Positions 1 through 38,300 of a stretch of 64,000 nucleotides of DNA are shown in pieces (within the stretch, counting starts at the first letter, position 1; every line of letters starts with the position of its first letter). The DNA is taken from NCBI GenBank assembly GCA_048771875.1, contig CM109711.1:4303768-4367767 (forward strand), read 5' to 3'. Under the pieces are notes generated by a model. That model ran no database searches, was not told the DNA's origin, and saw only the letters and a program-made list of their open reading frames with translations. A program made the translations under genes and the position numbers. Source of the stretch: Ctenodactylus gundi. Lineage: Eukaryota.

Positions 1-939
<939 letters not shown>

Positions 940-1210: not shown

Positions 1211-1250
1211 CACTTCTGGAAACCTCCCTGCACTTCTGGAAACCTCCCTG
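1211..1250 (+). repeat. perfect 20-bp tandem duplication (cacttctggaaacctccctg x2) in PRRT2 3'UTR
   Basis: Read directly from the sequence. Confidence 0.9.
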
Positions 1251-2126
1251 AACATCTCCCAGTCTCTCTGTGCTCTCAGCTGACCTGCATCTCTCCCGGC
1301 CTCCTTGCACTTGAGGCCTCCCGATTTCGATTTCTCTGAACCTCACTCCGCCTTGGTCTCCCGCTCCTAACTTCCACTGTCTTGGCGCCCACCCCTTTTC
1401 CTTTCCTTCTTCCCTTCTTTACCATCTGCATACCCCCAGCCTACATTCCCCGCTCCCTTCTCTTTTTCTGCCTCTTCATCTACCCTTAAGCATCCTCTTC
1501 TCCACCTTCCTGCCACCATTTATTCTGCAAAAACTCCAGCATTTATATCAAGCTGGAAGAGGGGGAGCGGTGTCGGGAGAGGGCTATCTAGCGCAGGGCT
1601 CCAGCTGTTCTCTGCCGGCACCTTCCAGGCACAACCCCCACCCCCGCGCGCGCCTTTTGGTCGCGGAGTCGGCAAGCCCAGCTTCTGGGCACCCGTGCAA
1701 GGGACTCCCGATGCTAAACCCAAAGGGGAGGAGAAAGGGGCGCGGCAGCTGAAGGTTCAGCCGGGGTTGACCCGCCCACTTGGGCTTTTAACCTCAGTTT
1801 CTAGCTTGGAGGTGCCAGAGGCTCGGGCCATTCATCTGCTTTGTAATGAAAGAATCCAAAAACTGGGACCAAAGCTTCCAGCTGCAGGGAGCCAGGGAGG
1901 GGCGGGAAGCTCTAATTCCTTAGAGGACTAGGGAGGTTTGTTGCACGCGACATCCCGTTGAAGAGGCAGAGAGCCAGCTACAACGTTGTTCAGAGTTGGC
2001 GGGTTTTTTGGTTTCTAAAAAAAAAAAAAAAGAGGTCGGGGGGGGGACTAAAATTCATTTCTAAAAGGATATATAAAACTGACTCTCCCTTTTTGTATGC
2101 TGGATGCTGCATGCGTCTGAAACACC

Positions 2127-2132
2127 AATAAA
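2127..2132 (+). terminator. AATAAA, candidate PRRT2 polyadenylation signal
   Basis: First canonical hexamer downstream of the PRRT2 stop, about 1.2 kb into the 3'UTR and about 650 bp before the PAGR1 ATG. Confidence 0.35.
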
Positions 2133-2149
2133 CGGAGACTGCATGAGAT

Positions 2150-2780
2150 TCGCTTCCGGTCTCGGTCCCTACGTTCGTTTGCTGGGCCGGGGCACTGCCT
2201 CCCGGCAGAGCCTACTTGGGTGAATACGCATGCGCCGTCTCAATGGCCATCTTTACTGTGGGCTGAAGCCTTGTGATGCCCGAGAGCCTACCCGCGCATG
2301 TGCACACCATCCCTTACTTTCCTCCTCCAAGTAGCTTTGAGTAGACCGAAGCCTCCCGCGCCATTGCTGTGCGCCTGCGTACTGTGACCCTGCGCAGCCC
2401 GGGAGGCGGGTCTTAATTCCAGGTGCGTACGGCGGCTGAGTCGACGCGGCTTTGAACTGCGAGGTTGGGTCCCAGAGCGGAGAGGGGAGATGTGAAGCCG
2501 CGCAGCGTGGGTCCGCCCCTTTTCCGCTCAGAAGTGGTTTCTGAAGGTCCTTGAGAACATCAGAGCTCCAGCTCTGGATCTTGGTCTGTGGGGCGGGGTC
2601 CTTCCCTACAGGGGACTGAGCGCCCCCTCCTGGGAACGAGCCGTTGGGCCGCAGATTCAGTCCAAGCCTGATTGGTTGGAGAGGATTTCCCGAAGCCCTG
2701 GGGATCCCAGTCCCTGGGGGTGAGGGACTTGGAACTCCGATAGCTATTATTATATTGCTGGGCCCCTTCGATAGTGGCCC
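2150..2780 (+). promoter_or_regulatory. CpG-island promoter region of PAGR1 (continues into exon 1)
   Basis: High CpG density, GC boxes and no TATA, immediately 5' of the PAGR1 ATG at 2781. Confidence 0.5.
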
Positions 2781-5897
<3,117 letters not shown>

Positions 5898-5996: not shown

Positions 5997-6559
5997 ACTT
6001 AAGCCCTCGACACAGCACTTTGCGGAAGGAGGGAGTGTGCATGTGTTTCCTGTTGAGCATCTATTTTGAGACTTGGACTGGTTTGAGATTTTTTCTGAGT
6101 TTAAAATAAAAGGTGCAGAGTTTTCTTCTCCCAATTTTCTTTCTTCCTTACTTACTTTTCTTTCTTGGTACTGAGGATTGAGCCCTGGGGCTTGCACACT
6201 GAGCTACATCCTCCTTAGGTCTCACTAGGCTGCCCAAACTGGGTTTGAATTTGTGATCCTCCTGCCTCAGCTTCCGAGAGTGCTGGGATTACAGGCCTGT
6301 GCCACTGGGCCTGACAAGTTTTCCCCTCTTAGTAGGGGTTGCAGCTAGAGCCTAAACAGTTAGCAGATGCAGAATTTACCCAGGTTGGAAAGTGAAAGCC
6401 ATTTGGGACACAGGCATATTCAGAGAATGCTGCCTTCCCCAACCCCAGCCCTGTGGTCCTCTGACCCAGCTAAGGGAGAAATTCCTAAGCACGGAATGAA
6501 TAAGCTTCAGATGACTCACAAGGCAGAAATTCCTGAGCTGACCTGCCAGCCGCCACTAT

Positions 6560-6833
6560 AGCCTGCCCAAAGGGGAAAAAGCTCGAACCGCTGGTGCCCT
6601 TTAAATACTCAAGCCCCGCCTATCTGCCCCGCCCACCCGGCCCAACCCCAAGCCCAGCGGCCCTTGGCTAGGAAGTGATCCCCAGAGCCGGGTGAGGAAG
6701 TTTCCTGAGGAGCTCTGCGGCTACTAACCTACATGTGAGTACGTCACACTGGTGCTCAGATCCGTGGTGGTCTCTGGGCCCCAAAGCTCTCTTTAGCCTT
6801 GTCCTGCTTTCTAGGACTTTACTTACGGGGCAG
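6560..6833 (+). promoter_or_regulatory. MVP: candidate MVP TATA-less/GC-box promoter and non-coding exon 1 (overlapping the PAGR1 3' flank)
   Basis: There is a TTTAAATA motif and Sp1-like GC boxes (ccccgcc x2) at 6600-6635. Consensus splice donors occur at 6735 (GTGAGT) and 6834 (CAG|GTAAGA). The MVP ATG exon at 23802 opens with a strong acceptor, so a 5' exon must exist. In human the MVP TSS lies inside the PAGR1 3' region. Confidence 0.3.
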
Positions 6834-7424
6834 GTAAGACCTCTTTGAAGCAGAAAGGGAAAAGGGGAGGGCAGAGGCCTCGTTTTGGAAGGTTTTGCTC
6901 ATCTTGATTATCCTAGAATTTGAACTTGAAGGCCCGGTTTAGGTGGTACTGGAGAATTGAACCCCCAGCCTTCGCTTGCTGCTCTAACCACTGTGCTATT
7001 TCTCCAAACCTATGTCTCCTTTATGTACTGGGGCTCCCAGGGCCTTCAAACTGAGTCACATCTCCAGCCCTTTTTATTTTTTGTCTTGAGAGGAATTCTC
7101 ATTAAGTTACCCAGGCTGGGCTCAACCTTGCAATTCTCCTGTCTCAGCCTCCCCTAGCGTTGTGATTACAGGCATATGCCAGTGTCCAGTTCACATCTCT
7201 TAAGAAAAAAGACGGGGCTGGGGGTATAGGTCAGTGTTAGAGTGCTTGCTAGCCTGTGAGAGGTTCTACTAAAAAATTAGGCTGGGCGTGGTAACGCACA
7301 CCTGTAATCGTAGCACTCTGGGAGATTGAGGCAGGAGAATTGCAAAATCGGGCCCACGCTGGGTAACTTAACAATTTAGTGAGACCCTGCCTCTAAATAA
7401 GAAATTAAAAAGGACTGGGGTGGG

Positions 7425-16935: not shown

Positions 16936-17971
16936 AGAGAGGGGGAGAGAGAGAGGGAAGAAGAATACATCTTCAAGAGAGAAGATGGCCAAGTGCTGAG
17001 ACACCAGTTGCCCTGAATGAGGTGTCAGGTTAGATTTCGAAAATTAACTTGGTTTTTCAGGGAATCTCCTTTCTTCCCTCCCTGGTAATCATTGTTCTTT
17101 TATAAGTAAAATGGGCTGTGTTGAGTTATATCAGAGAGAACTAGGTCCTTGTTTACTCACTAAGTGTTTTTTTTTTGTTTTTTTTTTTTTTTTTTTTTTT
17201 GGTAGGACTGGGCCTTTGCACTGAACTACATCTCTAGATCTTTTTTATTTTCGATTTTGAAACAAGGTCTCACAAAGTTGCTAGGTTGCCCAGGCTAGGC
17301 TTGAATTTGAGATCTGCCTACCTCAGCCTCCCAGAGTGCTGGGATTACAAGCACGGACCAATACGCCCAGCCCCTAAAGTGGATGTTTTTCGTGTGTTTT
17401 GAGACCTTGAGGTTTCCCAATGCCTCACTCGTAGTCTCAACTTTGTGCAGATCCTGGACCTATCAGCATGCTCCAGTGTGGAGATGTGAGCTCGTGTGGA
17501 TTGTATCTGTAGCTGATCACTAAGAAAGCAAAGGAAGAAGTGATGGGGGTCTCTGCTGTCTCACGTAGCCCTCAGCTTCTTGTGTCCGGGCCTGCTGATG
17601 TCCAGTGCTCTGCCTAGCAAACTTCATGACATTGGAGGCCCTTGTGACCTGGGAAGGCCCAGAGCCATCTGGGGGCAGCTGTCTTGTGGGGGCTGAAGGG
17701 GGTTGGCGTAGTTGGTGGGTGTGGGGAGTTGGGCCAGATCTGAGATTCCAAAGGTCAGTTCAACCCCTTACCCTTGCCCATTGAGGGTCCTGACGTCCTG
17801 GAAGTAACATGCTCCAACTGTGCATGTAATCTGATAACAAAGTTTAAAACTGCGTCTTGCGGGGTGCCCTGGTGGATGCCGGCAATCCCAGCCCCCTGGA
17901 AGGCTGAGGTCAGGGGATCCCAAGTTCAAGACCAGGCTGGGCAGCTTAGACTTTGTCTCAAAATAAAAAAG

Positions 17972-18180
17972 GCTGGAGGGATGGCACAGTGGTTAAAGCA
18001 CTCTTGAGTTGATTCCCCAACACCACGACGTAAAGCTGGCATGGTGGCGCATGCCTGTAATCCCAGCACTCAGGAGGCTGAGGCAGGCGGACTGTTCTGA
18101 GTTCAAGGCCAGCCTGGGCTATGCCAGGGAGTTCAGGACCAGCATGGTCTACAAGAGCGGGATTCTGGCTTAAAAAAAAG
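17972..18180 (+). mobile_element. composite ID-like + B1-like SINE
   Basis: Same architecture as the element at 7425. Confidence 0.7.
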
Positions 18181-18299
18181 AAAAGAAAAAGAAAGAAAGA
18201 AAAGAGAAAAAAAGTGTGGGGTGTGGGGAGACAGAACGGTAGCTCGGTGTGAAAGGCCTTGAGTTCAATCCAGAAAAGTAAAGTGAAAATTTAGAAATT

Positions 18300-18960
18300 A
18301 ACCCATCAACCTGAGGCTTGGTCCAAACATACCTGCCAAGAGTGTAAGGGCAAGAGACTCTCCGAGTGACTCTGGTCAGGGGTCAGGTGGAGGCGCCGCT
18401 GAGAGAGGGGCCGGGGTGGTGAGGGAGCGAGGAGGACAGGACCCTGGCGCCAGCGCAGGCCTTGGCCTAGGAGCAAGGCAGGAGGAGCCCAGCTGGACCC
18501 GCGAAGAATTTGACTTGCTGAGTCACGGAGCTGGGCTAGGCACGCAGGCCCCCTGAAGGGCCCAGCTGGGGCGGCAGATGGCGGCCAGGCCCCAGCAGAG
18601 GGAGCGTGGCGAGCCGGCCAGGAGGAGCCAATGGGGCTGTTCCCAGAGCCGCTTCCAGCCCCGCGTGGCCCCCGGAGTTCCGATCTCCCCTGCGCCCACC
18701 TCCGCCCGCAGCCCCGGCCCTTCCTCTGTCCCATCTGGCTCCCTGGCCCGGCTTCCACCCTGCGGGGAACCCGGCGCAGGCGCTGCTGGGAAGCTCCGCT
18801 CGGCTTTGCTGCGCCTCGCCCTGCAGCTGGGGCGCGCAGACCTGTCACCTTCCCCACCAGGACAGAGGGGCGGTCCCCATGCCAGGCCTCTCTGGTTAAA
18901 AAAGTTGGACCTCGGGCGCTATCCGATGTGCAGGAAACGCACAGTGCTTATGAAGAGCCG
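18300..18960. promoter_or_regulatory. orphan CpG island inside MVP intron 1
   Basis: About 650 bp of unique, very GC- and CpG-rich sequence. It has long ORFs in 4 frames with no recognisable protein similarity, and is flanked by SINEs. Confidence 0.35.
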
Positions 18961-19489
18961 GGCTGTCCTCTGAGCACTTTGCTTTTTAAAGTTACTGTTT
19001 TATTTTACTTTGTGGTCCTGGGAATTGAACCCACGGCCTGGTACAAGGTAGGAAAGTGCTTTACCTCTGAGCATCATGCCGGACCCTCTCAGTGCTCTGT
19101 GCAAAAACTTGCGGACAGTGCTGACTTTGCTGCCCCTCCTCTTTTATTTTTTTAATTTTTATTTTTTATGACACTGAGGTTTGAATCCAGAGCCTTTACA
19201 GTGAGCTACATCCCCAGCCCTTTGATGTCATTTTTTGGCACGAGGTTTTGCTGAGTCACTAAACTGCAGTCTGAGCTTGGACTTGAAGTCTTCCTGCCTC
19301 AGCTTCCCATAGTGCTGGAATTACAGACCTGTGCCCCAGATCCAATTCCCTCATTTAAAATTTTTATTCTATTTTTACTTCAGACAGTGTCTCGCTCTGT
19401 AGTCCAGACTGGTCCTGAACTCACTCTAAAGCCCAGACTAGCCTTGACTCACAGCCTCCCAAATTCTTGGATTACAGGCCCAAGACACC

Positions 19490-20050
19490 ATACGTGGATA
19501 ATTTTCCCCCCACCATTTTTATTAATATATATGCGATGCATAGTGTTTACAATGAACTTGAGTATTTTGTGCACTTATATATCACGTCAGCTTTACAATC
19601 CCTTCCCATTTTCAGCCCTCCCACACCCTACCCATCTATCCACCCTAACTCCCACTATCACACTCATTTGGTTCTATAGAATGCTTGTATTCTGGGTTTC
19701 CCAAGTCAGAGAAACCATACAATATTTAACATATTTAACCTTCTGCTTCTGACTCATTTCACTCAAATCACCACTCTTTAGCTCAGCTTCCCACCCCTAG
19801 AATGGGCTGCAGTGGCCGTATCTTGATGCCTCTTCTCTGGGCAGAGCCCTTTATTGGGATATTTGTCAAAAATTCTTTTTTTCTATATCTTACTACATCT
19901 TTGTTGGGATTCTTTAATGTGGCCTCATCTACCAGTCCACATAAGAAAAATAACAATGTAACTGATAAGGCTAGAAAATGTGAGAAGGAAGGAGAGAAGT
20001 TAAATTTAAAATGCCTTGGCTGAATTCTAAAAGGTAAATGTTTGTACATT
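19490..20050 (+). mobile_element. L1-like 3'-region fragment (plus orientation)
   Basis: The tgactcatttcact... block is typical of the rodent L1 ORF2 C-terminal/3' region. Confidence 0.3.
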
Positions 20051-22700
20051 TAGAAGATGTTCAGGTTATCATTACATCAATCAGTTTTCTTAGGATAAAC
20101 TTACATCAAAGACCAAATAAGTGAATTGCTACAATAAACGAACTTAAGTCTTTATCAAATTTACACATTAAATGAACTTAAATCTATATTACAGAAGTAT
20201 ATTACACTTAAAGCAATAGATATAATGGGATACTTAGTTATTTCAAAAATTTTTAACTTTCATAAATTATTTACTCACATTTCATTACTAACATTTTGCC
20301 AGATTTGGGTTATCATTTTATCTACCTATCCATCCATAAATTCATGCACATGTATTTTTAAAAGATTTTATACCAATTCTTCATGTAGACTATAATTATT
20401 GTTTTTAAAACTAATATATTATTACAAATAATAATGTGGGGAAATTTCACAGATTTTATGAAATAGCTGATACTGTTTTAGAATATCAATCAAATGATTG
20501 AAATACTGATTTTTTTTGTTGCGCTTTCTCTATAGATGTTTCCTTTCTGCCATGTTTTTTGGTGCTGCTTGTCTCTGCCTTGCTCAAAGATTCCTTCAAG
20601 TATTTTCTGCAATGTTGGGCTAGTGGTCACAAATTCCTTTACGGATTCTTGGTCATGAAAAATTTTTGATTCCCCTTTAATATTCAGGGATAATTTTGCT
20701 GGATACAATAACCTGGTTGACACCTGCTGTCTTTTAAAGCTTGAAAGAGTTTCCTCCAGGCTCTCCTGGCCTTTAAAGTTGGCATTGAGAAATCTATAGT
20801 AATTCAAATGGGTTTGCCTTGGTAGAATAATGTCTGTTTTTCTCTTACTGCTTTTAGTATTCTCTCTTCATGTTGCATTTCTGAGGTTTTAATTATATGT
20901 TGTGGTGAGTCCCATTGCTGGTTGAGGTTATTTGGTGTTCTATAAGCATTTTGTACCTGAAAATTAATTTCTTTTTCTAGATTTGGAAAATTTTCTTGTA
21001 AGCTTTCAATGAATAATAAATTCTTTATTCTTTCAGTGCTGTCTTCTGCTCTTTCTCCCACACCCATTATTTTGAGACTGGTTCTCTTTGAAGCATCCAT
21101 CAGCTGTTGTATCCAGCTACTTTGCTCATTTCTAATTTTGGAGTCATGCCTAATTATGGCATTTGTTTCTTCAGTCTTGTCTCACAATATTCCAGTCGTC
21201 TTTCCCTGCATCACATATATTTTTATATCCTGAATTTCATCTAGATTTCTTTTCAAAATTTCTACTTCTCTGCTAAAATGTTCCTTCATATCTTGCATTT
21301 CCTTGTTTACTTCAGGCTTCTATATGCTCAGTAAGCTTTGTCTCCATTAGGACCACTATTTGGTTAGCAAGTTCCTTTTAAGCCCACTGATCAGTGCTTG
21401 TATTTCTTTGAGAATATCTTTGGTCTTTTTCTTTTTTTATTTGATTTTTACTTTTTGGTGCTGAGGACTGAACCCAGGGCTTTGCACTTGCAAGGCAGGC
21501 GCTCTACCACTGAGCTAAATCTCCAACCCCATTTGAGAATATTGTTTGAACTGATTGTTCAACTCATTTATTTACTTTTTGACTTCCTTCTCTCTGAGTT
21601 CTACTATTTCAGGGGCCATGACATCAGTTTCTGGGGTCTCAGGCATCTCTGTGGATGTCCTATTGCCTCGTCTTCTTCCCATGTTTCTGTTGTTGAGGAA
21701 CTTCACTGGAAAGGCCTAGCTGAGAGGTTTCTTTGAGTATGAGAGTGTGTGGGGGGAGCCTAAATTCCCCCTGAGTTCTTTCCAGGGAGTAGGCAGTGAG
21801 GAGGACCAAACAGTATGATAGCCTCTGGGGTGTCATGATCACCCTCAGCCCCCTCAGCCAAGCTCTCCCACCTGTCCTGGCTGCCCTACCCCGAGGGTGG
21901 GGCTCTCCACCCTTGGAGGTGCTCACACTACACCCAGCCATTCAGGAGGTCACTGGCCTCTCTCCTCTTCACAACTGTCTCTTGGGCCAGTTTTTTCCTA
22001 GGCACTATTAAAGAGTGACCCCCAAAACCCTGATGCACTCTTCTGAGCTTTCTTTTACTCTAATTAGTTCATTATCAGGCTCTTTTTAAAAAATGGATAC
22101 TTGCTTACATCATTGCCTATTGATGGCTGCCGAGTGCTGCTTCTGAACTTGGCTCGGGAGGCCTTTTTAAAGAGAAGTTCACAGTGTGTTTGTAATATGC
22201 AGTACCCCCAGGTTTGTTTCTGGAGTCTGGGGCTACCAGCTGCTGTCAATTCCCACTTCTCCTGGATCCACACTTACCTTAGTCTGAGGTTCCAGTCTCC
22301 ACGCTTCCATCTGGGGATGCCGGCAGCTCAGGGCTGCACTGTTTTCCTCTAATTCTGATATGTCTTAAGAGATTTCTGACTTCCCATGGTCTTCTTTCGG
22401 TGTTTGGGGTGCTCCTTCCTCTCCTAGCTCCATCAAAGGTTCCGGACTCCAGCAGCTTTCCTCTGTCTGAGGATGCTGGCAGCTCCCAGCTGTTCACAGT
22501 TGGCCTGGGGCAGCTTCCTGGGCTGTTTTTCCCCAGACTTCCAATGTTCCTTCGGGGATTTCTGACCTTCCCCTGGCCTTTTTCAGTTGTCAGGCCACTC
22601 CTTCCTGTCCTAGCTACATTAAACAGGTGCTTTTTGACTGTATTCTCAACTTTTTAAGTGGTTCCAGGAGAAGACATTTTGCAGCTCCGTTCCTCAGCTG
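20050..22700 (-). mobile_element. LINE-1 element, 5' portion: tandem 5'UTR monomers (about 22310-22620), ORF1 remnants (20490-21100), start of ORF2
   Basis: Minus-strand ORFs 20490..20807 and 20804..21100 encode L1 ORF1p-like sequence (...ENFPNLEKE..., ...YPAKLSLNIKGESKIFHDQESVKEFVTTSPTLQKILEGIF). Two approximately 150-bp direct repeats upstream resemble a rodent L1 promoter monomer array. Confidence 0.55.
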
Positions 22701-23801: not shown

Positions 23802-23851
23802 CCGTCTGTCATTCTCTGCGCCCACATTAACGGGGGGGTTTGGAAGTAACC
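23802..23851 (+). other. MVP: MVP 5'UTR part of the ATG-containing exon
   Basis: A pyrimidine tract plus cag acceptor ends at 23801. The ATG is at 23852. Confidence 0.5.
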
Positions 23852-23976
23852 ATGGCAACTGAAGAGTCCATCATCCGCATCCCCCCCTACTATTATATCC
23901 ATGTACTGGACCAGAACAGCAATGTGTCCCGCGTGGAAGTCGGACCAAAGACCTATATCCGGCAGGACAATGAGAG
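23852..23976 (+). CDS. MVP: MVP coding exon 1 (ATG exon)
   Basis: ORF track 23840..24043. GTGGGT donor at 23977. Phase 2. Confidence 0.9.
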
Positions 23977-26900
23977 GTGGGTGTGGGGTCCTTACGCTGA
24001 AAAGCTCCTATTAGTCTGGCTGGTGGGATCGTCCTACCTGTAGGCTAGGAGTGGCCCTCGTTTGAGTGACAGGGAGATTTCTCTGGGTCTGCCACCTCCT
24101 TTGGGTGTGGAGACCAGGGTGTCTGGCATCCTCTGAGCCTGTCTTACCCTCCAACAGGGTACTGTTTGCCCCTGTGGCCATGGTGACAGTCCCTCCACGC
24201 CACTACTGCACAGTGGTCAATCCTGTGTGCCGGGACGCCCAGGGCTCCGTGCTGTTCGACGTCACAGGACAAGTCCAGCTTTGCCACGCTGACCAAGAGA
24301 TCCGGCTGGCCCAGGACCCCTTCCCACTGTACCCAGGGGAGGTGCTGGAAAAGGTACCTACCCTGGCTCCCCGCACCCTGCTTTGCCGTCCTGCTACCTG
24401 TGCCAAGAAAGCAAATGGGGCCAGCGAGAGTGGCTGGGTGGGCAGGCTCCAACCAGCAGGGCTCAGGGACTCACTGCCCCCCCCCCACCCTCTCAGGCAC
24501 CCCCTTCCCCTGTGCATGCCCCAGACAGACTTGTATGCCCAAGGACTGTCACCCGCCTCACCACCAAACCTGCCAGGCTCCGGCTTTCAGACACTCCCAG
24601 TCATGCCCCACTGCATGAGCTGTACTGGAGTCAACCGTTCAGTCAAAGGGGCCAGACATCAATGGGCCAGGATGAAGGAGTAGGGTGTGAGATGCTGGTT
24701 TGTCCCCGGGGAATCCACCCCAGGCCTGGGCCGAGCCAAGGCTCTGTCCAGGTGGCCTTGGCCCCTGCCCCAGCAATTGGCGACCGCCTCGACTTTCTTA
24801 ACAACTTCCTCTCCTCCTCCTCCTCCTCCTCCTCCTCTTTTTCCTCCCTCCCTTCCTTCTTTTCTTCCTCCCCTTCCTCCTCTTCCTCTTGTCTCTCATT
24901 TCTTCTTTTGCAGTAGAACCTGAGGCCTTTGCACTGAGCTGAACCTCCAGCCTGTTTTTTGGTTTCGATTTTGTGACAGAGTCTTGCTAAGTTGCTAAAT
25001 TGTCCAGGTTGGGCTTGAATTTGTGAGCCTCCTGCCTCAGCTTCCCAGACTGCTGGGATTACAGGCCTGTGCTACCAGGCCCAGCTTTATCTCAACCCTT
25101 TTGCCACTGTTACCTATTAATTCTATGTTCCCTTATAACCAGTGCAGTTTTGTTTTGTGTGGCACTGGAGGTGGAATTCAGGGCCTTGCATATGCTAGGC
25201 CACGCCCTTCGGTGCTAAGCTCCACCCCTAGGTCCTGTCCGGTGTTTCTTGATCCTGAATACATAATAATGCTACCCGATGGGCTTTTAGAGTGCATTCA
25301 TGGCCACTAAGATGCAAGCAGTTGAGAAGTATATGAGTAGAGAGAGAAAATGGGGAAAAGTGATTAACCCTTAAGGAACCCAAGGGAAGAGTACAGATGA
25401 ATTATTTGTACTGTTGTTGCAACTTTTCTCTACCTCTGCAGCTCTCAAAATGAAATGTTTGGGGCTGGAGGAATGGCTCAGCATTTAAAGCACTAGCCTA
25501 GCAAGGGCTAAGTCAAGAGCTAAGTGCCTGAGTTCGATTCCCTAGCACCACATAAGCCTGTGTGGGGGTGCACGCCTGTGATCCCAGCACTCAGGAGGCT
25601 GAGGCAGGAGGATTGCCATGAGTCCAAGGCCAGCCTGGGCTCCACAGTGAGTTCAGGACCAGCCTGGACTACAGAGCGAGACCCTGTCTCAAAAAAAAAA
25701 AAGAAAGAAACATTTAAAAATATCCATATTCAGTCTGACTTCAGACCAACTAAATCCCCTGTGGGTGGAGGGCAGTATTTACACTTCCCAAGGGCTGAGA
25801 AGCAAAATTATCTCTGTGACCCCTCCCTGCCCCAAGGCCAGCCTGTGGAAGTTCATTCTCTCACATCTCAATTACCCTACCTGAGAGCAGCACTGGCTTG
25901 TAGAAGGTCCTTTCTCCTCCTTTTTTACTTTAAATTTTCATTTATTTTGTGGTAGTAGGGACCGAGCCCAGGACCTTCACACACGCAGACGTATAATCTC
26001 AGCCCACTTTTGATCTTTAACTTTGAGACAAGATCTTGCTAAGTTGTGCAGGCTGGGCTTGAACATGGGATCTTCCCACCTCAGCTTCCCGGAGTGCTGG
26101 GATTGCAGGACTGTCATTGGCTCAGGTCTCTTGTGCTCTCACCCTGCAGGAAAATAACTCTGGTTCTGACCAGGATTGTCTCCCATCTCCCCCGGCGTCT
26201 CACGCCCACGAGGGGTTCCTGTTGGAACAGAGAGGGCCACGCAGATCCTCCCTCCCATCAGTATCATTAGTAACTCATGTAGTAAATGCTTCATTCCTAG
26301 CCAACCTCTGTTCGCCAGTTCCCTTCCTTTCTGGCCATTTTTTTCTTCCTTTTCTCTGTCTGCTTCTAAATATTTCATGTTGTTAGCTCCCTTCCTGTTG
26401 TCAACTCTCTTATTCTTTCTTGTTCGTTTTCACAGTACTTGGGTGGGATTGAACCCAGGGTGGGATTGAACCCAGGGTGGGATTGAACCCAGGGTGGGAT
26501 TGAACCCAGGGTGGGATTGAACCCAGGGCCTTTGCACGAGCTTTCTCCTCAGTCTCCTTTTTTTAAAAAATGTTAAGACATGGCCTCACTCTGTTACCGA
26601 GGCTGGAATCAAACTTACGATCCTCCTGCCTCAGCCTTCCAGAGTACTGGGATTACAGGCTTACTTCACCAGGTGCGACTCACCTTCCGGCCTTCTTGTA
26701 CTTCCTAGCGAGCACAGGTGCGCACCGAGCTGTGAGACAGTTATTGATTTAGCTTTCCAGATGTCTACACTCGCCTCTTGCCACACAGCACCCCTCTTAG
26801 TACATGATTGGCTCCAACAGCTCCTGAGCACTGCAGAATAGAGCGTGTTCTTGGCTCATCAGCTGGTCCTCTGTCCTTTAGTTCTTTGGCCTCAAAGCCG

Positions 26901-29900
26901 CCCCTTCCTTATACCTTCTCCTGGGTCTTATTTTGGGATGTGTAAAAGATTGATACCATAAAAAAATAAGCAAACCAAAAAAAAAAAAAAAAAGGTCAAT
27001 ACCAGAGCTGGGTAAAATGATATGCACCTATTCTAGCTACTTGGGAGGCCCAAGTAGGAGGATCCAAGTTAGAGTCCAGCCTAGAGAATTTAGCAGGACT
27101 CCGTCTCACAATAAAAAAAAAAAAAAAATCCTGTAATCATAGGCTGAGGCAGGAGGGTTACAAATTCAAGCTTAGTCTTGGCCACTTAGTGACTTATGAG
27201 ATCCTGTGTCAACACCAAGAATAAAAACAGCTCAGGATGTCACTCAGTGTAAAGGCTCTGAGCTCAGTCTCTAGGGGTATCTCTAGTAATAATAATAATA
27301 ACAATAAAGAGAAAGCAATGCCATGGACTCTGATGTCCACAGGACAGGTGTGTGCCTCGGGGTCACAGCACTGAGCGCCCCTCTTTCTTGTTAGGACATC
27401 ACTCCGCTGCAGGTGGTGCTGCCCAACACCGCACTGCATCTCAAGGCACTGCTGGACTTTGTGAACACGGAGGGCCACAAGGTACTGGCAGGAGATGAGT
27501 GGCTGTTTGAGGGGCCTGGTAAGTCCTCTGTCCGGCATGTTGGGGTCCTGCATAGCCCTGGCGCCTCTGGCCGCCAGCGACTCTCCATCTTTCTGTCGCA
27601 GGTACGTACATCCCCCAGAAAGAGGTGGAAGTTGTGGAGATGATCCAGGCCACAGTCATCAGGCCAAACCAGGCTCTGCGGCTGAGGGCGCGAAAGGAGT
27701 GCTTGGACTGGAACAACAAGCAGAGGGTGACAGGTGGGGTCACCAAGGGCACCGATGGCAGGTGGGCCAGGAGGGGGGCTTCTGGGCAGGAGAAGAATGG
27801 GAAAGCCATTGTGCGCCATGGGGGACACTCTCCTGATGTCTCTTGAGAGCTGGGAGAGCTGCCCCTGCTCCTTGCTGCCTCAGCCCCACCCTAATCCCAG
27901 GATCAGGACCTCGCCAACTGGCCTTCTCGTGCCTGTCCCTCACTTTGTACTGAGAGCTGTGGCCAGATCTTTTCTGGTTCTTGCGCGATAAAGCACATAT
28001 TCAAACACAATGAATAAATGCAACATCTACTGTATCGGATGTATGAATAATTCAAAATACTTTCCAGGCCGGGGCCAGTAGTACAGGCCTGCAGTCCTAG
28101 CAGGAGGACCGCAAGGTGGAGCCCAGCCAGGGCAATTTGGTGGCTTAGTGGGACCCTGTTGTGACAACCAAAATAAAGAGGGGCTCGGTGGGAAGGCCCC
28201 GGTCCCACCCAACCCTGACAAAATAATAGTGATAAGAAAATGAAATAACATGCTTTATACGATGTAACTTGCTTAGTCCTTTGATAGCCTGAAGGCATCA
28301 CTGTCGCCCTGTGGCGAAGCAGAGGGGAAGGTTATGACTTGTTCCCATAAACGAAACAGCATTTCCAACATTCCTTCTTTCTAGTACTCAGGGATTAAAT
28401 GCTAGGCCTTCATACTGAGCCCAATTTCTTTTTTTCTTTTCTTTTTGTGAGACAGGGTCTTGCTAAGTCACTCAGGCTAGGTTCACACATGCCATTTTTC
28501 CTGCCTCAGCCTCCCAGGGTGCTGCAGCTACAGAATTTCGGATGTGTGCCTTCCTGCTTGACCCACAGAGGCTTGTTTTGTTTTGTTTTGTTTGAGATAG
28601 GGTCTCACTCTACAGTCCTGGATGGTCCTGAACTCACGCTATAGCCCAGGCTGGCCCTGGACTCATGTCAGTCCTCCTGCCACAGCTTCCCAAGTGCTGG
28701 GATTACAGGCATGCGCCACCATATCCGGCTTACCTTGTGCTGGGAAATTAGCCTCAGGGCCTTGTGCTTTCTAGGCAAGTGCTCAAGCCACTGTGCTTTC
28801 CTCCACCCCCACAATTCTTCGATTCTTCATAGAGGCACTCCTGCTGCCCAGTTTAGGGAAAGGAGAAGTCTCTGGAACGTACAGAAGCCTTGTAGGGTGT
28901 TGGCGTACAGCAGCTTGATTCCTAAAAAGGCTTTTTAAATCCTCCTGGGGCAGAGGTTACTTTTCCTCTGGCTTCTTGAAGACTCCTGGCAGGCCCTGGA
29001 GTGGGACAGTGGCTCCTCTTCATCTGTGAGGCCCAGCTGGCCCTCTGTTGTCAATCTTGTAGGAGGGGACAGCGGGACGTAGATGACCCTCTCCCCTTCC
29101 TCTCATCTCAGGGGAGGAATGGCTGGTCCGCTCGGTGGGTGCGTATCTCCCAGCTGTGTTCGAGGAGGTTCTGGATCTGGTGGATGCTGTGATCCTCACC
29201 GAAAAGGTCTGTGCTGGAGGATGTGGCCCCAGGGGCCAGGGCAAGGACTCTCGCGGTGACGGGGAAGGGTGGCAGGGAGAGTGCCAGTGAAAGAGAAGAA
29301 GTCTGATGAATCTAGATGATTGAGGAACATGATAGAGAGATTTTTAAAAGTGAGTGATTTTATGCAGTCTACTCCGTGGTCTCAGTTACTCCGAAGTAAG
29401 TGTATGTCATTTGATCCTCGTGCTGCAGTGAGTAAAAAGAGAAAAATAAAGACAGCATAAATAGTAAAATATGCTCCAGGGCTGGAGGGTTACCCAGTGA
29501 GAGCTCTCGCCTAGCAGTACAAGGGCCTGAGTATGATTGCCCAGTGCTACAAAGTGCATAATGCCTCGCGCCTACAGTCCCACCACTCAGGAGGCTGAGG
29601 CAGGAGGATTGCTATGGGTTCAAGATCAGCCTGGACTGCAGAATGAGACCCTATCTGAAAAAAAAAAAGAAAGAAAGAAAGCCCTCCTGGGTTGGACGGG
29701 TAGACATTATCATTCAGACCTAAGAGCAGGGATGTTCCCAGCCGCCTGGGGAAGTGGCGGGAGAGAGCTGGAGGGAGGCTTACTCACAGCCAGCGTGGCC
29801 TTCTGCAGACAGCCCTGCACCTCCGAGCGCTCCAGAACTTCCAGGACTCGCAGGGAGTGGCCCGCCGCACCGGGGAGGAATGGTTGGTGACAGTGGAGGA

Positions 29901-30734
29901 CACAGAGGCCCACGTGCCTGACGTCTACGAGGAGGTCATGGGGGTTGTGCCCATCACCACTCTGGGCCCCCGACACTACTGTGTGGTCCTTGACCCAGTT
30001 GGGCCGGATGGCAAGAACCAGCTGGGGCAAAAGCGCGTCATCAAGGTGAGCTGCGCCTCCTGGCGGTCCCCGTGAGGGCCTGAGGCACTGGGCGGGGGGG
30101 GAGCCTCCGCCCTCTCTCCCTTTCTCTGTGCTAGATGCAACTCTGCCTTCGCTCACTGTCCCGCTTGATTTCCCAGCAGCCTCCTTGTTACCTCCTGGGC
30201 CTCAAGTGCTTGGGGAAAGGCTGCTGGCTGTGTGTTCTGGAGTCTGTCACCCTTTGTGAATCTCACCCTGTTCCCACCGGCACCCCACCCCTGATCTCTG
30301 GGAGAATCCCGGGAATCGGCAGATTTCCTCTGTGAAGGACTAGAGAGTAGACGGGTTCTGCATGGTGAACCTCATGGTTCTGTTGAAACCCTTGACTGAG
30401 GGGTCATGAATGCAGCATGGGTGGCATGCAGGCACACGAGTGCCCCCCACCAACCCACCCCCTTTCCTGGAATATCTTATTTGCAAAAACAGGAGGCAGG
30501 AGAATCAAAGTAACCCAATGTTCACTGGTTGATGAAACGATCAAAAAACATCGTGGCATGTCTGTACAATGGGTATGATCACACAGTGGTATGATCCAGC
30601 TGTAAAAAGAGAGGAAGAGCTGGACTGGCGGGTGGTCCAGGCCTGGAATCCCAGCACACTGGGAGGCTGAGGCAGGAGGATCACGAGTTTGAGTCCAGCC
30701 TGGGCAATTTAGCAGCTGAGCAAGACCCTATCTC

Positions 30735-30766
<32 letters not shown>

Positions 30767-33700
30767 GCTGGGATGTAGCTCAGGCAAAGGCTTTAGGTTC
30801 CATCCTTAAGTACTGAGGGAAAAAAATAAGTAAAAGAAGACAAATATAAGACCATATATTGCATGCTCTCCAATATACTAAAACCATTAAATTACATACT
30901 CTAAATGGAAAAACTTTGTATGTGGATTATATCTCTGTAAAATAACAATCAGCCTATCCTCATTATTTTTATTTATTTATATGTTTTTTTGAGACAGAGT
31001 CTTACTTTGCATTCCAGGCTGGTCCTGAACTCACTGTGGGGCTTAGGCTGGCCTTGATCTCACAGCAGTCCTCCTGCCTCAGCCTCCCGGGTGCTGGGGC
31101 GACAGGCCTGCACCACCACGCCCAGTTATTATGTGGTGCTGCTCCACACACCTCGCTGTTCCTCCAGCCCCGCCCCCCTACCTTACCTGTGCGTCTTCAG
31201 GTCCAACCAACTATGGATTGAAGATATTTGGAAAAACAATTGCATCTGTCAAATATGTACAGACCTCCCCCATTGTCATTATTCCCTAAATAACATAACA
31301 AGTGCTTAGCAACATTTGCGTTGTGTTAGGTATTATAAGTAATCCAGAAGTGATTTAAGGTATGTGGGAGCCTGGTGAGCTGGTGTGCACCTGTATCCCA
31401 GCACGTTCATTCGTGGTTTCATTGTGAGTAAGTTCAGTCATTTGGGGGGAGAGGGGGACGCTGGTACTACGGATTGAACCAGGGCCTAGACCCAGAGCCT
31501 TACGCATGCTAAATGGTCTACCACTGAGCTCCCAGGGAGACTTTTTCTGGTGTCATTTGGTTGGTTGGGGTTTACAAGGCCTTGCTCTGTAGTCTAAGCT
31601 GATCCTGAACTCACTGTATTGCTGGTCTTCAAACTCACAGCAATCCTCCTGCTTCAGCTTCCTGAGTGATGAGATTACAAATGTGTGCCACCACAAACTA
31701 ATAGCAGTCCTGTTTAAATTATATTGTAAGGGTTGGAGGAATAGCACAGTGGTTAGAATGCTTGCCTAGTAAGCCCAAGCCCAGGGATCGATTCCCCAGC
31801 ACCACATAAGGTGGGCATGGTGGTGCTTGCCTGTAATTCTAGCACTCAGGAGGCTGAGGCAGGATTGCCATGTATTCAAGGCCAGCCTGGGCTACATAAT
31901 GAGTTCAGAACCAGCCTGGACTACAGGGAGAGACTCTATCTCAAAATAATAATAATAAAATAAATTATATTATCAGGCAGGGTCTCACTAATTTGCCCAG
32001 GCTAGTCTCAAACTTGTGATCTTCCTGCTTCAGCCTCCTCCCCACACATAGCTGGGATTACAGGTGCCACACAACTGGCTGTAGATTCGTGACTTATAAG
32101 GATTCAGCTCCTCATAGTTTGCAGAATCTTTCAAGAACATGTTTGATGGAAGGAGTTTCCACAGGCTGGGTCTAGTGGTGCACAGGCCTGTCACGGCAAG
32201 CACTCTGGGAGGCTGAGGCAGGAGGATCACAGATTTGAGCCCAGCCTGGGCAACTCAGCCACTTTGTGAGCTACTTAGTCTCAAAGTCAAAAATAAAAAT
32301 GGGACCAGTGGAGGAATAGCACAGCAGTTAATGTGATTGCCTAGCCAGCATAAGGTCCTTAGTTTGATCCCCAGACCCATATAAACTGGGGTGGGTGGTG
32401 CTAGGCTGTAATCCCAGGTCTCAGGAGGCTGAGACAGAGGATTGTCCTGAGTCCAAGGCCAGCCTGGGCTCCATAGTGAGTTTAGGACCAGCCTGGACTC
32501 CAGAGTGAGATCCTATCTCAATTAATTTTTAAAATAAAGTAAAAATGGGCTGGGATGGTTGCTCAGTGTAAAGGCCCTGGGCTCAATCTCCAATACCATA
32601 AAAAAAAAAAGAAAGAAAAGAAAACAGAAGGAAAAAGGTGGGCTCCCACAGGTACTTGTCTAGAGCCTCACAATCCAGGGGCATGTGACAGTGTCGGGTG
32701 GGCAGGGAGCGCTGCATGCCTCGGGGATGGGAAGGTCCTCTTAACCCTCTCCCTGTCGCCATCTCCCCCCTAGGGAGAGAAGTCCTTCTTTCTCCAGCCA
32801 GGGGAGCAGCTGGAGCGAGGCATCCAAGATGTGTACGTGCTGTCGGAGCAGCAGGGGCTGCTGCTGAGAGCGCTGGAGCCTCTGGAGGAGGGAGAGGGCG
32901 AGAAGGTGCTGCGCCAGCCCGGGGACCGCTGGCTCATCCGCGGGCCCCTGGAGTACGTGCCCCCCGCCAAGGTGGAGGTGGTGGAGGAGCGCCAGGCCAT
33001 CCCTCTGGACGAGAACGAGGGCATCTACGTGCAGGACGTCAAGACTGGAAAGGTGATGGCTGCAAGATGAGCGGCGCGCTGTGTGACACACCGCAGCTTG
33101 GTCTGGGCAAGCCGTGCCAGTGAGGGAAAGGCGCTGGGGGTGGGTGGATGCCAGGAGCATCTGGCCAGGCTGTCCGGCAGGTGTGGCCACATTTCACCGA
33201 GCATTTCCTATCTCTTTGTCTTAAATGTCTAATTTCAAATTTTAAATGGGAACTGGTGGCACAGGCCTCATAATTGTGGCACTCTGGGACGCTGAGGGAG
33301 AAGGACTGTGAGTTCAAATCCAGCCTGGGCCATTTAGCAACTTTGCGAGACTCTCAAATTCAAAATCAAGATACGGACTGGGGCTGTAGCTCAGTGACAA
33401 GGCCCCGGGCTCAATCCCCAGCGTTGCTCTGTCTCACCAGGTGTGGTGACATCACCTTTAACCTAGCACTCTGGGAGCATGAGGAGCATAGGTTCCAGCC
33501 CAGCTTAGTGTTAGGCCCTTTCTAAAAATAAATATTATTACTATTACTATTTTTGACACAGAGTCTTATTCTGTAGTCCAGGTTGTTCTTGGACTTACTA
33601 GGTAATCCAAGCTGGCCTCGAACTCATGGCAATCCTCCTGCCTCAGCCTCTTGAGTGCTGGGATTACAGAGATGCACCACTATGCCTGGCTAGTTTTTTT

Positions 33701-35307
33701 ATGTGGTGCTGGGGAATCAAACCCAGGATCTTGCGCATGCTAGGCAAGCACTTCAACTGCTGCGCGGTACCCCTCAGCACCTCAACATAAAAATTAAGGC
33801 CTGGTATGGAGATCAGTGTGAAGGTCCTACCTTTGGTCCCCAAGATTGCTTAAAAATAAGCAAACAGTGCAGACCTGGTCCCAGCATAAAGGTCTCACTG
33901 GAGAGTGACCTAGGCACAGGAAGAACCTCCCCCAAACTGGGTATGAGAACACACACCTGTAATTCTAGTGCTCGGGGAACCTGAGGCAGGAGGATCACAA
34001 GTGTACGCCCAGCTGTTCCACTGCAGTTCAGCAACTGAGAGAGACTGTCTCAGAAATGAGAAGGGGCTGGGGGTGTGTTGATGTCTCAGGCCCTGGGCTC
34101 CGTGTCCAGCGTTGGGGAGAGGGAGGGGAATGACCTGCTTCCCTCTGGACCCATCCTTTCCGGCTTTTTCTTTTTCTGCTCCTTCAGGAAAATCTTGACC
34201 ACAGACCCATCTCCAGCTTCTCTTTGTGATGGTCTGGGGAGGGTCAGTGTGTGAAGATGCTTCCAACCGCCCAGGAAGGACGATTTTGAAATAATATTGT
34301 GGTTATGTGCTTAGTGTTGTGCCTTGAACCAGACGTGGTGATGTCCCCTTGCCCCGTGGGGTCCCACCACCGGGTCCATTTGGTGGGCAGCTTGCCCAGG
34401 GTGAGAGCTGGCCGAGGACAGGGCGGAGACTGAGGTCAGCCTGCTACGGAGACGCTGCGCGGGGCCACTGCGTCGGGACTGGCCTGTCCCTGCTCCCGCA
34501 CTGACGACACCTGTCCTGTGCCCCTCCCAAAGGTGCGTGCTGTCATCGGAAGCACCTACATGCTGACCCAGGACGAGGTCCTGTGGGAGAAGGAGCTGCC
34601 CCCCGGGGTGGAGGAGCTGCTCACTAAGGGGCAGGACCCCCTGGCCGACCGGGGCCATAAGGCCGGGGACAAGACGCCTCACCTGCCCCCTGCCCGGAAC
34701 AAGACCCGTGTGGTGAGCTACCGCGTGCCGCACAACGCGGCGGTGCAGGTGTACGACTACAGGGCCAAGCGCGCCCGGTGAGCGGCGCCCCGGGCGGGCG
34801 GCGTGTGGGCGGCGGGCGCGGGGCCCATCAGGCTCTGACCTCGGCTCTCTCCGCAGCGTGGTCTTCGGTCCGGAGCTCGTGTCGCTGGGGCCGGAGGAGC
34901 AGTTCACCGTGCTGTCCCTCTCGGCCGGGCGGCCCAAGCGGCCCCATGCTCGCCGCGCGCTCTGCTTGCTGCTGGGCCCGGACTTCTTCACAGACGTCAT
35001 CACCATCGAAACGGCAGACCACGCCAGGCTGCAGCTGCAGCTGGCCTACAACTGGTGAGGGCCGCAGCTGGGCCAGCACAGGAGACGCCACCCAGGGAGG
35101 GCGGAGCACAGAGGTGCCCAGGTCAGGAGAGCTGGGGGCTGGAGGGATGGCACAGAGGTTAAAGCACTTGCCTAGCAAGCCCCACATCCCGAGTGTGATT
35201 CCCCAGCACCACATAAGCTGGGCATGGTGGGGCAGGCCTGTCATCCCAGCACTGGGGATTGTCCTGAGTCCAGGACCAGCCTGGACTACAAAGTGAGAAC
35301 CTGTCTC

Positions 35308-35346
<39 letters not shown>

Positions 35347-38300
35347 GTAAAAAGGTGAGCTTGGAGGCTAGGGGTGTAGCCAAGTGGTAGAGCCCTTGCC
35401 TAGCGTGCTCTGGTCCCCGGGTTCCATCCTCAGCACAGCACTGGGTGAAGGTGGGGCTGGGGAATCCAGGAAAGAGGCTGGCTCACTCACGCCCTGGCAC
35501 GTGGACTTTGGGATCCAACTGAAGGGCGTTAGGCCAGCTAACCTCCCTTTTGTATCCAGCCCAATGCTTCCCTGAAGTGTTACCAAAAGATTCATTCCCA
35601 GCGCGGTGGTGCAGCTGCGCAGAAGCTCTAGTCCCAGCTACTTGGGAAGCCGAGGCAGGAAGATTGCAAACTGGAGCGCACCCTGAGTGACTTGGAAACT
35701 CAGCTGGGGACTCAGCTTGGTGGGAAGGCCCTGGGCTCAAAACCCCAGTACTAGAAAAATGGAAAAAAGACAGAAAGCCACTTCCCAAGCATTTGTTCCA
35801 TACCTCTTGGCTGAGAGTAGCCAATACAAAGGCGCACGGTACTGGTGAAGCCCAGGACACAGTAGCATTGTGCCTCAGTTATTATTTGTTGCTGCTGTTG
35901 CTACAACACATTACTGAACACCCACCATTCAGGGGAGGAAAGGTTTATTTTCGCTCACAGTTTCATGAAGTCTCAATCCATTTATGGGCAGCCGGCAATG
36001 GTGAAGGCCTGGCCAGGCAAGAGCTGTTTGTGGTATGGTGGACAGGAAGGCAACTGAGCAAGGAAGGGTGGCGCTAACATATACCCTTCCAGATCCCACC
36101 CCTTCTAGGTAGAGCCCCAAGGATTGGCCCCTTCCAGCCAGACCCCGCCTCCTATGAGCACATGGCATCCATAGACTGGATTCTAGGATATCCAAATACA
36201 TGAGACTTTTTGGGGGACATTCCGGATCCAAACCATGACAGTTAAGAGCACAGATCCTACAGCCAGATTCCCTGGCGGCAGCTTTCCGGCGTGTCACACT
36301 TTGGATGACCTTGGGCCAGCCATGTAATCTCTCTGGACCTGTTTCCTCATCTATAAAATGGGAAGAATACTGTTTCCTACCTCCAAGGGTAGTGGAGAGG
36401 ACTAAGTGGGAAAATGAAATAGGTTTCTCTAGGATTTCTTTTTTTTTTTTCTTTTGCATCACCAGGAACTGAACACAGGGCTTTTGCACTGAGCTATAAT
36501 CCCAGCCGTTTTTAATTTTTGTTGTAAGATAGATAGGGTCTCATTAAGTTGCCAAGTTGCTTGAGCTGGGCTTGAACTTGTGATCCTTCTGCCTCAGTCT
36601 CAGACTGCTAGGATGACAGGCCTGCACCACTGGGCTCAGCTGATACTCTTAGGATCTTACTGGGCACAAATGAGCGTTCTAAGCTGTAGGAGATGCTGCC
36701 CGGCCGCAAAGAATCAGTGTCAACTCCTGGAGAGTTAGCATGTCCGGAAGAAAATGGCTTCCCTGCTCTGGGCCTTCCCTTCCAGGCACTTCGAAATCAG
36801 TAACCGGAATGATCCTCAGGAGGCAGCCAAGCTCTTCTCGGTGCCCGACTTTGTGGGTGACGCCTGCAAGGCCATCGCATCCCGTGTGCGGGGGGCCGTG
36901 GCTGCAGTCACCTTCGACGACTTCCATAAGAACTCAGCCCGCATCATCTGCACAGCAGTTTTTGGCTTTGAGACCTCCGAGGTCAAGGGTTCCGACAGCC
37001 TGGTGCTGCCCAGGCCCGGGGACAAGGCCATCTTCCCCCAGAATGGACTGGTGATCAGCAGTGTGGACGTGCAGTCAGTGGAACCTGTGGACCAGAGGAC
37101 CCGGGATGCCCTGCAGCGGAGTGTCCAGCTGGCCATTGAGATCACCACCAACTCCCAAGAGGCGGCCGCCAAGTGAGTGACCTCCGCGGGGGTGCGGGGT
37201 CCCCATCTCACCACGGCCTGGACCAGAACTGAAGGTTTGGCCCAGGGTTGGGGATTGTACAGCCTTTGTGAAATCATTTGCTCTGGCCTGGCCCAAGGCC
37301 TCACCAAAGAGAAGCAGTTGCAGCCGTCACATTAGGGGTGAGTTAATTAAATGTTTTACCAAATCTAGCAGGCTAATTTTTAAGTTGATAATTTTGTAGG
37401 GACCATATTTGTATCCAAGTGGCCCTTGGCAGATAAAAGGTTCCCTGCTCCTGGTTTAGCCAATCCAGGGACAGTGCAGGCTCACCTAGATACGATCGCA
37501 TCCAGGCGGCCAGCCTGCTGCCATCCTTGGCCCCAAGGACCTGTTCTTTACCCAGCAGATAATGTGACCTACTTACAGTGTGAATCAGATGCTGTCCCTG
37601 CTCTCACCGCTTTCCCCCTTGCTTACGAGGGACCCAAAGTCTCAGTGGCCTTCCAGGCTTTCTGAGGTTCAGCCTGTCCCCTGACACCCCACTTTCCAGC
37701 CCTTCTCCTCAAATATGCACAGTTCCTACTTCCAGCCATTTGCACTGGTTGTTCTGCTGCCCAGAAAGCACTTCCTTTGGGGCACTTCTAAGGCAGGCTC
37801 CTCCTAGCCACCGCCCCAAAATCACCTGGTTTGTGCCCCCTGGTTGCAGTAGTGCCCTCTTTGCCAGGTCACCCGTGTCCCTACCCCCACGCCGCCTGCT
37901 GCTGTGCCCCACATGCTTGCTTGCGTGTGTTAGTGGTACTGTCGGTGGGAGCAGTGCAGCATGTGCACCTGCCTTCCCAGGCCGAGGCCGCCCATGGGTC
38001 CTTCCTTGCACGTGTGATGATCGGTCTAAGCAGGCTGCGCGTTGGGTGCAGTCCAGAGCACAGGGCCTGTCCTGGGCTCCCTGCCGCTTGGTGATCCTTG
38101 GCACTGCTGGCTCAGCTCCAGCCCATTCCAGCATCTCTCCTGCCCCTGCTCTCCTCCAGGCACGAGGCTCAGAGACTGGAGCAAGAAGCCCGCGGCCGCC
38201 TCGACAGGCAGAAGATCTTGGACCAGTCAGAAGCTGAGAAGGCTCGCAAAGAGCTCCTGGAGCTGGAGGCCATGAGGCGAGTGAGATCAGAGGAGGAAAG

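Follow-up and report, generated by a model that had tools for sequence, protein, structure and literature searches.

A short, weak CpG island with clustered promoter-type motifs in intron 1 of MVP, a candidate regulatory element

The MVP locus and the position of the feature

The window that we analysed, a stretch of 64,000 nucleotides, is a mammalian, rodent-type segment syntenic to human 16p11.2. It begins with the C-terminal exon of PRRT2 (45-419), which is followed by exon 1 of PAGR1 (2781-3259) and the remaining PAGR1 exons (about 3442-3526 and 5697-5897) with AATAAA signals after them. MVP has its 14 coding exons on the plus strand, beginning with the ATG at 23852 and ending at about 40154. 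We mapped them with a human MVP sequence as the probe; an unrelated contig of spliced MVP mRNA, with exons that align in the same order at 23835-40110, confirmed the positions independently. In this paper we describe a GC- and CpG-rich stretch at 18300-18960, upstream of these coding exons, which we refer to as the feature.

MVP exon 2 (23802-23976) carries the ATG and begins after ...tcttctccacag, with a ccacag acceptor. The 50-nt part of the 5' UTR within this exon contains an in-frame TAA. The N-terminus encoded at 23852-23974 has Ser6 and Tyr14, where the mRNA contig has Ala and His and the human sequence Phe and His. These are minor lineage-specific substitutions in an exon that is otherwise very conserved. 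Downstream of MVP the minus strand contains L1 ORF2-like ORF fragments at 44000-44710 ('...LPKLIHRFKAIPIKMP...'). Gammaretrovirus-like gag/pol ORFs on the plus strand at 48700-54450, with a PPPY late-domain motif and a reverse-transcriptase-like stretch, indicate a putative endogenous retrovirus inserted between MVP and CDIPT. Exon 1 of CDIPT lies on the minus strand at about 59.8-61.3 kb, together with a strong CpG island. No other island of the window is as strong as this one (59801-61270), which has an observed/expected (obs/exp) CpG ratio of 0.78 without an excess of TpG. It is the promoter of CDIPT, perhaps a bidirectional one, and overlaps with exon 1 of that gene ('MPSENIFLFVPNVIG' near 60.15-60.2 kb).

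The canonical MVP promoter and the non-coding exon 1 are found just after PAGR1, at 6440-6834 on the plus strand. The block at 6440-6735 contains two tandem CCCCGCC GC boxes and an AP-1 motif (TGACTCA) near 6512, and is followed by strong exon 1 donors at 6735 (CAT/GTGAGT, with the slash marking the junction) and 6834 (CAG/GTAAGA). The two alternative donors could yield length variants of the MVP 5' UTR. The promoter is CpG-poor, with an obs/exp of 0.41. The MVP gene is known to have 15 exons and a TATA-less promoter with a conserved GC box, which occurs in three copies in mouse and two in rat (PMC7916137). A gene of 15 exons fits the 14 coding exons plus one non-coding exon at about 6.44-6.83 kb. 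The known characteristics of the MVP proximal promoter, namely a position adjacent to non-coding exon 1, the lack of a TATA box and a conserved GC box, are seen at 6.44-6.74 kb and not at 18.3-19.0 kb.

A metagenome scan baited with MVP residues 1-107 resulted in 80 loci, of which only L001, the mRNA contig already mentioned, is mammal-like. This contig (ERZ786672 NODE-567, 1-3058) is an assembly chimera. A PIM-type kinase fragment is encoded by its nucleotides 3-299; past a junction near GAAATTCCT the contig continues as a rodent-like MVP mRNA, completely spliced and with 14 coding exons, in which the final 70 or so nucleotides ahead of the ATG are true 5' UTR of MVP. Searched against the whole window, the portion of this UTR that precedes exon 2 matches best at 6526-6555/6566, with a score of 37 (compared to 32 for the runner-up and a median of 20; blastn E 0.18). 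Against the feature it reaches only the background score of 20, and L001 shows no similarity to the feature. The UTR match at about 6.5 kb places the feature within MVP intron 1. We recovered a single spliced MVP mRNA, from a different rodent-like species, and its first exon is the one at about 6.5 kb rather than the feature. As this is one transcript from one other species, it leaves room for a restricted use of the feature. Among the 80 loci no genomic contig extends upstream of exon 2, and the contigs that carry MVP fragments in the protein collection are no longer than 4 kb.

The feature begins 11.47-11.57 kb after the candidate exon 1 donors at 6735 and 6834 and 5552 bp before the MVP ATG, and it ends 4842 bp before exon 2. 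A preliminary description of this DNA had placed it about 5 kb upstream of the ATG exon and about 11.5 kb downstream of exon 1, in agreement with the 4.8 kb and 11.5 kb that we measured. It had also called the feature unique and flanked by SINEs, which is borne out by self-BLAST: the feature is contained in a single-copy GC- and CpG-rich block at 18209-18982, a weak intragenic CpG island of which a second copy was not found within the 64-kb window, and multi-copy repeats abut this block on both sides. On the left there is a cluster of B1-type and tRNA-derived elements with an A-rich tail (17869-18208), of which the window has up to 40 copies, and an A-rich array at 18172-18214. On the right there is a multi-copy, tRNA-derived SINE fragment (18983-19072). 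We looked for tandem, inverted-repeat or TE architecture within the feature and found none. An origin of the feature from an interspersed repeat or TE was rejected, as it is single copy in 64 kb and lacks both tandem monomers and the architecture of an LTR element. Intron 1 contains a sharp AT-rich trough a short way past the feature, at 20001-20500, with a GC content of 0.24.

Base composition and island status

With a GC content of 0.678 and 42 CpG the feature has an obs/exp of 0.55, compared to a window average of 0.32, and the values of the containing block at 18209-18982 are close to this (GC 0.645-0.678, 42-44 CpG, obs/exp 0.55). Its CpG density of 6.35 per 100 bp is level with that of the promoter islands of PAGR1 (6.31) and CDIPT (7.41). 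The density is highest in a core at 18600-18850 with 9.16 CpG per 100 bp and a GC content of 0.74, where 100-bp windows have an obs/exp of 0.66-0.76. The best 500 bp of the feature contain 35 CpG at a GC content of 0.70, whereas intron 1 has a mean of 6.5 CpG (maximum 22) and of 0.47 GC (maximum 0.60). Only four loci in the window, the feature among them, have at least 42 CpG per 661 bp, corresponding to the top 3.6% of tiles. The feature is therefore a clear compositional outlier in intron 1.

Once normalised for its very high GC content, the feature is only borderline as an island. The thresholds of Gardiner-Garden & Frommer 1987 (at least 200 bp, GC at least 0.50 and CpG obs/exp at least 0.60) are reached by 18581-19010 only (430 bp, GC 0.658, obs/exp 0.65), and the full 18300-18960 falls short of them at 0.55. 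Those of Takai & Jones 2002 (at least 500 bp, GC at least 0.55 and obs/exp at least 0.65) are touched by a single 500-bp window at 18662-19161, which has an obs/exp of 0.653 and partly consists of flanking SINE. The promoter islands of PAGR1 and CDIPT have a TpG obs/exp of 0.86-1.09, and that of the feature is higher, at 1.29. A CpG ratio as low as 0.55 together with this TpG excess could mean that the feature undergoes germ-line methylation and decay; it suggests partial germ-line methylation or at least some CpG decay. The GC skew is positive (G-rich) on the left and negative (C-rich) on the right, which is the opposite of what is seen in divergent R-loop-type CGI promoters.

Coding sequence of the same gene can reach similar values. 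MVP exons 8-9 (34281-35120; obs/exp 0.71, 8.2 CpG per 100 bp) are at least as CpG-dense as the feature. MVP exons 11-12 (38151-38790) also score as an island, with an obs/exp of 0.63 and 6.3 CpG per 100 bp. Both exon pairs carry just one or two promoter motif types despite their island scores. Since exons 8-9 are no less CpG-dense than the feature, a promoter cannot be recognised by CpG density alone in so GC-rich a region, and island calls are unreliable as promoter markers at this locus.

These results qualify the earlier labels of the feature as an orphan CpG island that is extremely CpG- and GC-rich. The second label captures an intron 1 outlier with the CpG density of a promoter island, but it is overstated for a sequence with an obs/exp of 0.55 that mostly falls below the island thresholds. 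The orphan character, that is remoteness from known transcription start sites (TSSs), is evident from the distances of 11.5 kb to the inferred exon 1 and 4.8 kb to exon 2. The island itself is short, weak and of intermediate CpG content, and therefore we accept the term orphan CpG island only on lenient thresholds, for 18581-19010.

Motif content, splice signals and coding potential

The feature contains several motifs that are typical of regulatory DNA, for which the individual P values of 0.003 to 0.054 are relative to dinucleotide shuffles of the feature. On the minus strand at 18516-18526 there is a candidate ARE or Maf-recognition half-site containing an AP-1 TRE (GTGACTCAGCA, or TGCTGAGTCAC on the plus strand; P=0.003 for TGCTGASTCA), in which the ARE core RTGAYNNNGCR is present. 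The looser ARE class shows no enrichment across the window, with 7 sites found and 8.4 expected. A YY1-type motif, cAGATGGCGGC, follows on the plus strand at 18575-18585 (core ATGGCGGC at 18578; P=0.03). The CTCF-like core CCAGCAGAGGGAG at 18592-18604 (plus strand) is weak, with a mismatch at the conserved GGC position; the relaxed pattern has a P of 0.04 and the strict CTCF core pattern was not found in the feature. An NF-Y type CCAAT box, AGCCAATGG, is located on the plus strand at 18626-18634 (P=0.054) and an NRF1-type motif, GCGCCTGCGC, on the minus strand at 18774-18783 (P=0.016). There are three GC boxes (GGGCGG) at 18569-18574 (plus), 18702-18707 (minus) and 18868-18873 (plus), which is not significant compared to the 1.55 expected, and a G-quadruplex-type run on the minus strand at 18687-18720, visible as C-tracts on the plus strand.

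We also investigated the joint occurrence of such motifs, using a panel of ten non-nested promoter and insulator motif types scored on 661-bp tiles. The feature has 5 of the 10 types, where 0.84 would be expected and none of 500 shuffles matches it, although the panel was partly picked after reading the sequence and the clustering test is therefore suggestive and not decisive. No other 661-bp tile in the window has as high a count. The PAGR1 promoter and the canonical MVP promoter have three types each, and GC-matched or equally CpG-dense gene-body blocks have one or two. With a panel that is partly post hoc, the promoter-type motif content of the feature is above background.

The strongest splice donor around the feature is on the minus strand. 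It lies at 18327-18335 (CAG/GTATGT, junction at about 18332) and scores 9.6 bits, similar to the better MVP exon donors under the same matrix. We can only infer that it would end the first exon of an antisense transcript born in the island. On the plus strand no good donor was found between 18560 and 18960, which weighs against a classical promoter, and the first decent one past the core (AAG/GTAGGA at 19045-19053, junction at 19048) lies within a SINE. Neither the 5' UTR of L001 nor the search for plus-strand donors in the core points to transcripts from the feature that are spliced to exon 2.

All six reading frames are open across the core, and the minus strand has an ORF of 183 aa, of which 51% is Pro, Ala, Arg or Gly. 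The longest stop-free run has 213 codons, a length that is reached by 11.6% of dinucleotide shuffles. The Pfam search of seven open stretches of the feature gave nothing at E<=1. There were 0 matches to the 183-aa minus-strand ORF and a 156-aa plus-strand frame in word-indexed searches of 5.8 billion clusters, and 0 matches in an exhaustive HMMER search of 1.84 billion representatives with a 138-aa plus-strand frame. Exact look-ups of two ORFs of the feature matched no record. A degenerate-pattern scan of metagenome contigs baited with an open frame of the feature also returned nothing; mammalian DNA is present there as short contaminant contigs. With the protein-homology, HMMER and Pfam searches all empty, we rejected a coding reading of the feature. 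The suspicion that the ORFs of up to 183 aa are compositional is thus supported by a length within that of shuffles and by the lack of a Pfam match or homologue, and the statement that the feature lies outside recognisable exons also stands, as no coding homologue or domain was found. The protein databases contained no match to the GC-rich ORFs that would reveal an unrecognised exon.

Signals of an RNA gene were equally sought. Rfam gave no match at the gathering threshold in the whole window and none at E<=1 in the feature, and RNA folding showed no excess stability relative to shuffles on either strand (z +0.59 and +0.47). A scan for bacterial promoters and terminators was empty, which is irrelevant to this mammalian DNA.

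Possible functions of the feature

What we observe of the feature is its composition, uniqueness, position and motif clustering, and that it has no coding or RNA-family signal. It is probably a regulatory element of the ordinary intragenic kind. The reading that we favour, at a probability of roughly 45%, is that of a short, weak orphan CpG island that may serve as a promoter-like cis-regulatory module, whose activity would be low or restricted. We arrived at it by weighing the base rate for orphan CGIs together with the motif clustering and the signs of a weak island with CpG decay. About 40% of the orphan CGIs defined by experiment have H3K4me3 and 42-44% show transcription initiation; the intragenic ones are most often methylated (21-26%) and have been proposed as alternative or non-coding-RNA promoters (PMC2944787). 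The possibility of an alternative promoter or a lncRNA or eRNA start site, raised in the preliminary description, is plausible but unproven, and the motif clustering lends it indirect support. The promoter-like module also draws on the CpG density, which is that of a promoter island; counted against it are the low obs/exp with the TpG excess, the direction of the GC skew, the missing plus-strand donor in the core and the exon 1 usage of L001.

Such a module would involve factor binding, hypomethylation and transcription initiation at the feature, all of which we infer. The clustered NF-Y, YY1, NRF1 and Sp1 sites, together with the stress-responsive AP-1/CNC-sMaf site, would keep a platform of about 500 bp depleted of nucleosomes. 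From this platform RNA polymerase II might start at a low level or at one restricted to certain tissues or to stress. The product could be an alternative non-coding first exon of MVP or a short or antisense non-coding RNA, and the same platform could also enhance MVP and neighbouring genes from within the intron. Because exon 2 has an in-frame TAA upstream of the ATG, the feature could alter only the MVP 5' UTR and never the protein. A gene trap in intron 1 of mouse Mvp results in a liver protein null (PMC10647150), which may speak against the module, depending on where the trap lies relative to the orthologous site. Our literature searches on MVP found nothing specific on an intron 1 element, an alternative promoter or a CpG island, and MVP is not mentioned in the supplements of the orphan-CGI paper (PMC2944787).

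A pure intronic enhancer is a possible, if doubtful, alternative. It would respond to AP-1 and NRF2-sMaf at TGCTGAGTCAC, might loop with the assistance of CTCF, and would boost the CpG-poor MVP promoter or neighbouring genes while producing at most an unstable eRNA. The perfect candidate CNC-sMaf/AP-1 site and the CTCF-like core nearby would suit this explanation, as would the absence of a convincing plus-strand exon structure at the feature. The canonical MVP promoter, with its obs/exp of 0.41, might depend on distal elements, and MVP is induced via JNK signalling and reduced by NRF2 knock-down. But the ARE is single, the looser class is not enriched, an identical 11-mer is found in a nearby repeat and the CTCF core is mismatched at a key position. 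NF-Y, YY1 and NRF1 motifs are more typical of promoters than of enhancers, and only 1.6% of enhancers lie within 100 bp of orphan CGIs (Illingworth et al., PMC2944787). Somewhat more doubtful still is a non-functional GC-rich relic, such as a decaying former CpG island, a hotspot of GC-biased gene conversion or the remnant of an old insertion, in which the motifs would be coincidental. The intermediate obs/exp, the TpG excess, the shortness of the block and its atypical GC skew would all be expected of a relic, the MVP coding exons are equally CpG-dense without being promoters, and no sign of conservation or use was found in the metagenome scans or in L001. What speaks against a relic is that the motif clustering is far above that of shuffles and of every other tile, GC-matched gene-body blocks included, and that the feature has neither repeat or TE architecture nor a second copy in the window.

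An unlikely explanation is a conserved, stress-inducible alternative MVP promoter driven by NRF2 and AP-1, which would give an mRNA with a uATG-rich 5' UTR or an antisense RNA. JNK/Sp1 stress signalling acts on MVP (PMC7916137), and NRF2 knock-down lowers its expression (PMC8992493), which we also counted in favour of the promoter-like module. For its proximal promoter no validated NRF2 site is known and only in-silico sites have been proposed (PMC7916137, PMC8992493). Given this dependence on JNK/Sp1 and NRF2 the candidate AP-1/CNC-sMaf site may be of some interest, but one motif is not evidence of regulation. It is very unlikely that MVP has its main promoter and exon 1 at the feature, with the block at about 6.5 kb belonging to something else. 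The feature is far more CpG-rich than that block and carries a CCAAT box and GC boxes, both of which are listed for the human promoter (PMC7916137). However, the genuine 5' UTR of L001 matches best at 6526-6566 and is at background against the feature, the tandem GC boxes described in rodents and the strong donors sit at 6.5 kb, and the core of the feature has no good plus-strand donor. On the basis of where the L001 UTR maps and of the GC boxes at 6.5 kb, we rejected the feature as the true MVP exon 1. The least probable explanation, to which we give next to no weight, is that a protein-coding exon or a small gene has gone unrecognised here, or that the feature is a gene for a structured non-coding RNA. 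It would make use of the long ORFs in six frames and of the ATG inside the YY1-like motif, but the ORF length fits the composition, the Pfam, protein, metagenome and Rfam searches were empty and the folding z scores are +0.59 and +0.47.

MVP has been linked to drug resistance, stress responses and the 16p11.2 dosage syndromes. If the promoter-like module is active, the feature would be a second control point of MVP, and it could explain the NRF2- and JNK-dependent expression of the gene. If the stress-inducible promoter were real, there would be a second, redox-responsive control of vault expression, separate from the CpG-poor proximal promoter.

Weak intragenic CpG islands with promoter-like motifs exist in their thousands in mammalian genomes, which makes the feature a routine example of a known and well-described class. 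The intermediate-CpG promoters, reportedly described as the ICP class by Weber et al. in 2007, are a related group. Promoters of this type are often regulated by methylation and restricted in their tissue distribution. The best 500-bp obs/exp of the feature, 0.55-0.65, is likewise between low and high CpG, but ICPs are promoters and the feature is a candidate only.

The feature resembles the orphan CGIs of Illingworth et al. 2010 (PMC2944787) in being a CpG cluster in a gene body, remote from a TSS, slightly below the density of classical promoter islands and with promoter-like motifs. Those islands were identified as non-methylated DNA by CAP-seq, whereas the feature is known from sequence alone; compared to the class it is short (about 430-660 bp), with an obs/exp of 0.55-0.65 and signs of CpG decay. 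With the MVP/LRP proximal promoter (Lange 2000, Steiner 2004 and Mossink 2002, summarised in PMC7916137) the feature shares the gene, the GC boxes and the CCAAT box. That promoter, however, is CpG-poor, has two tandem GC boxes and lies beside the non-coding exon 1 at about 6.44-6.74 kb, and the feature is found 11.5 kb downstream. The ARE enhancers of the NQO1/HMOX1 type are comparable in that the feature has a perfect TGCTGAGTCA(C) candidate CNC-sMaf/AP-1 site. In the feature this site is single, not multimerised and a match in sequence only, and its setting is a CpG island with NF-Y, YY1 and NRF1 motifs, unlike a typical distal enhancer. The same ARE 11-mer, GTGACTCAGCA, is also found 720 bp downstream, beyond the feature, at 19249-19259 in a multi-copy repeat, and SINE-borne AP-1/ARE sites occur in this genome.
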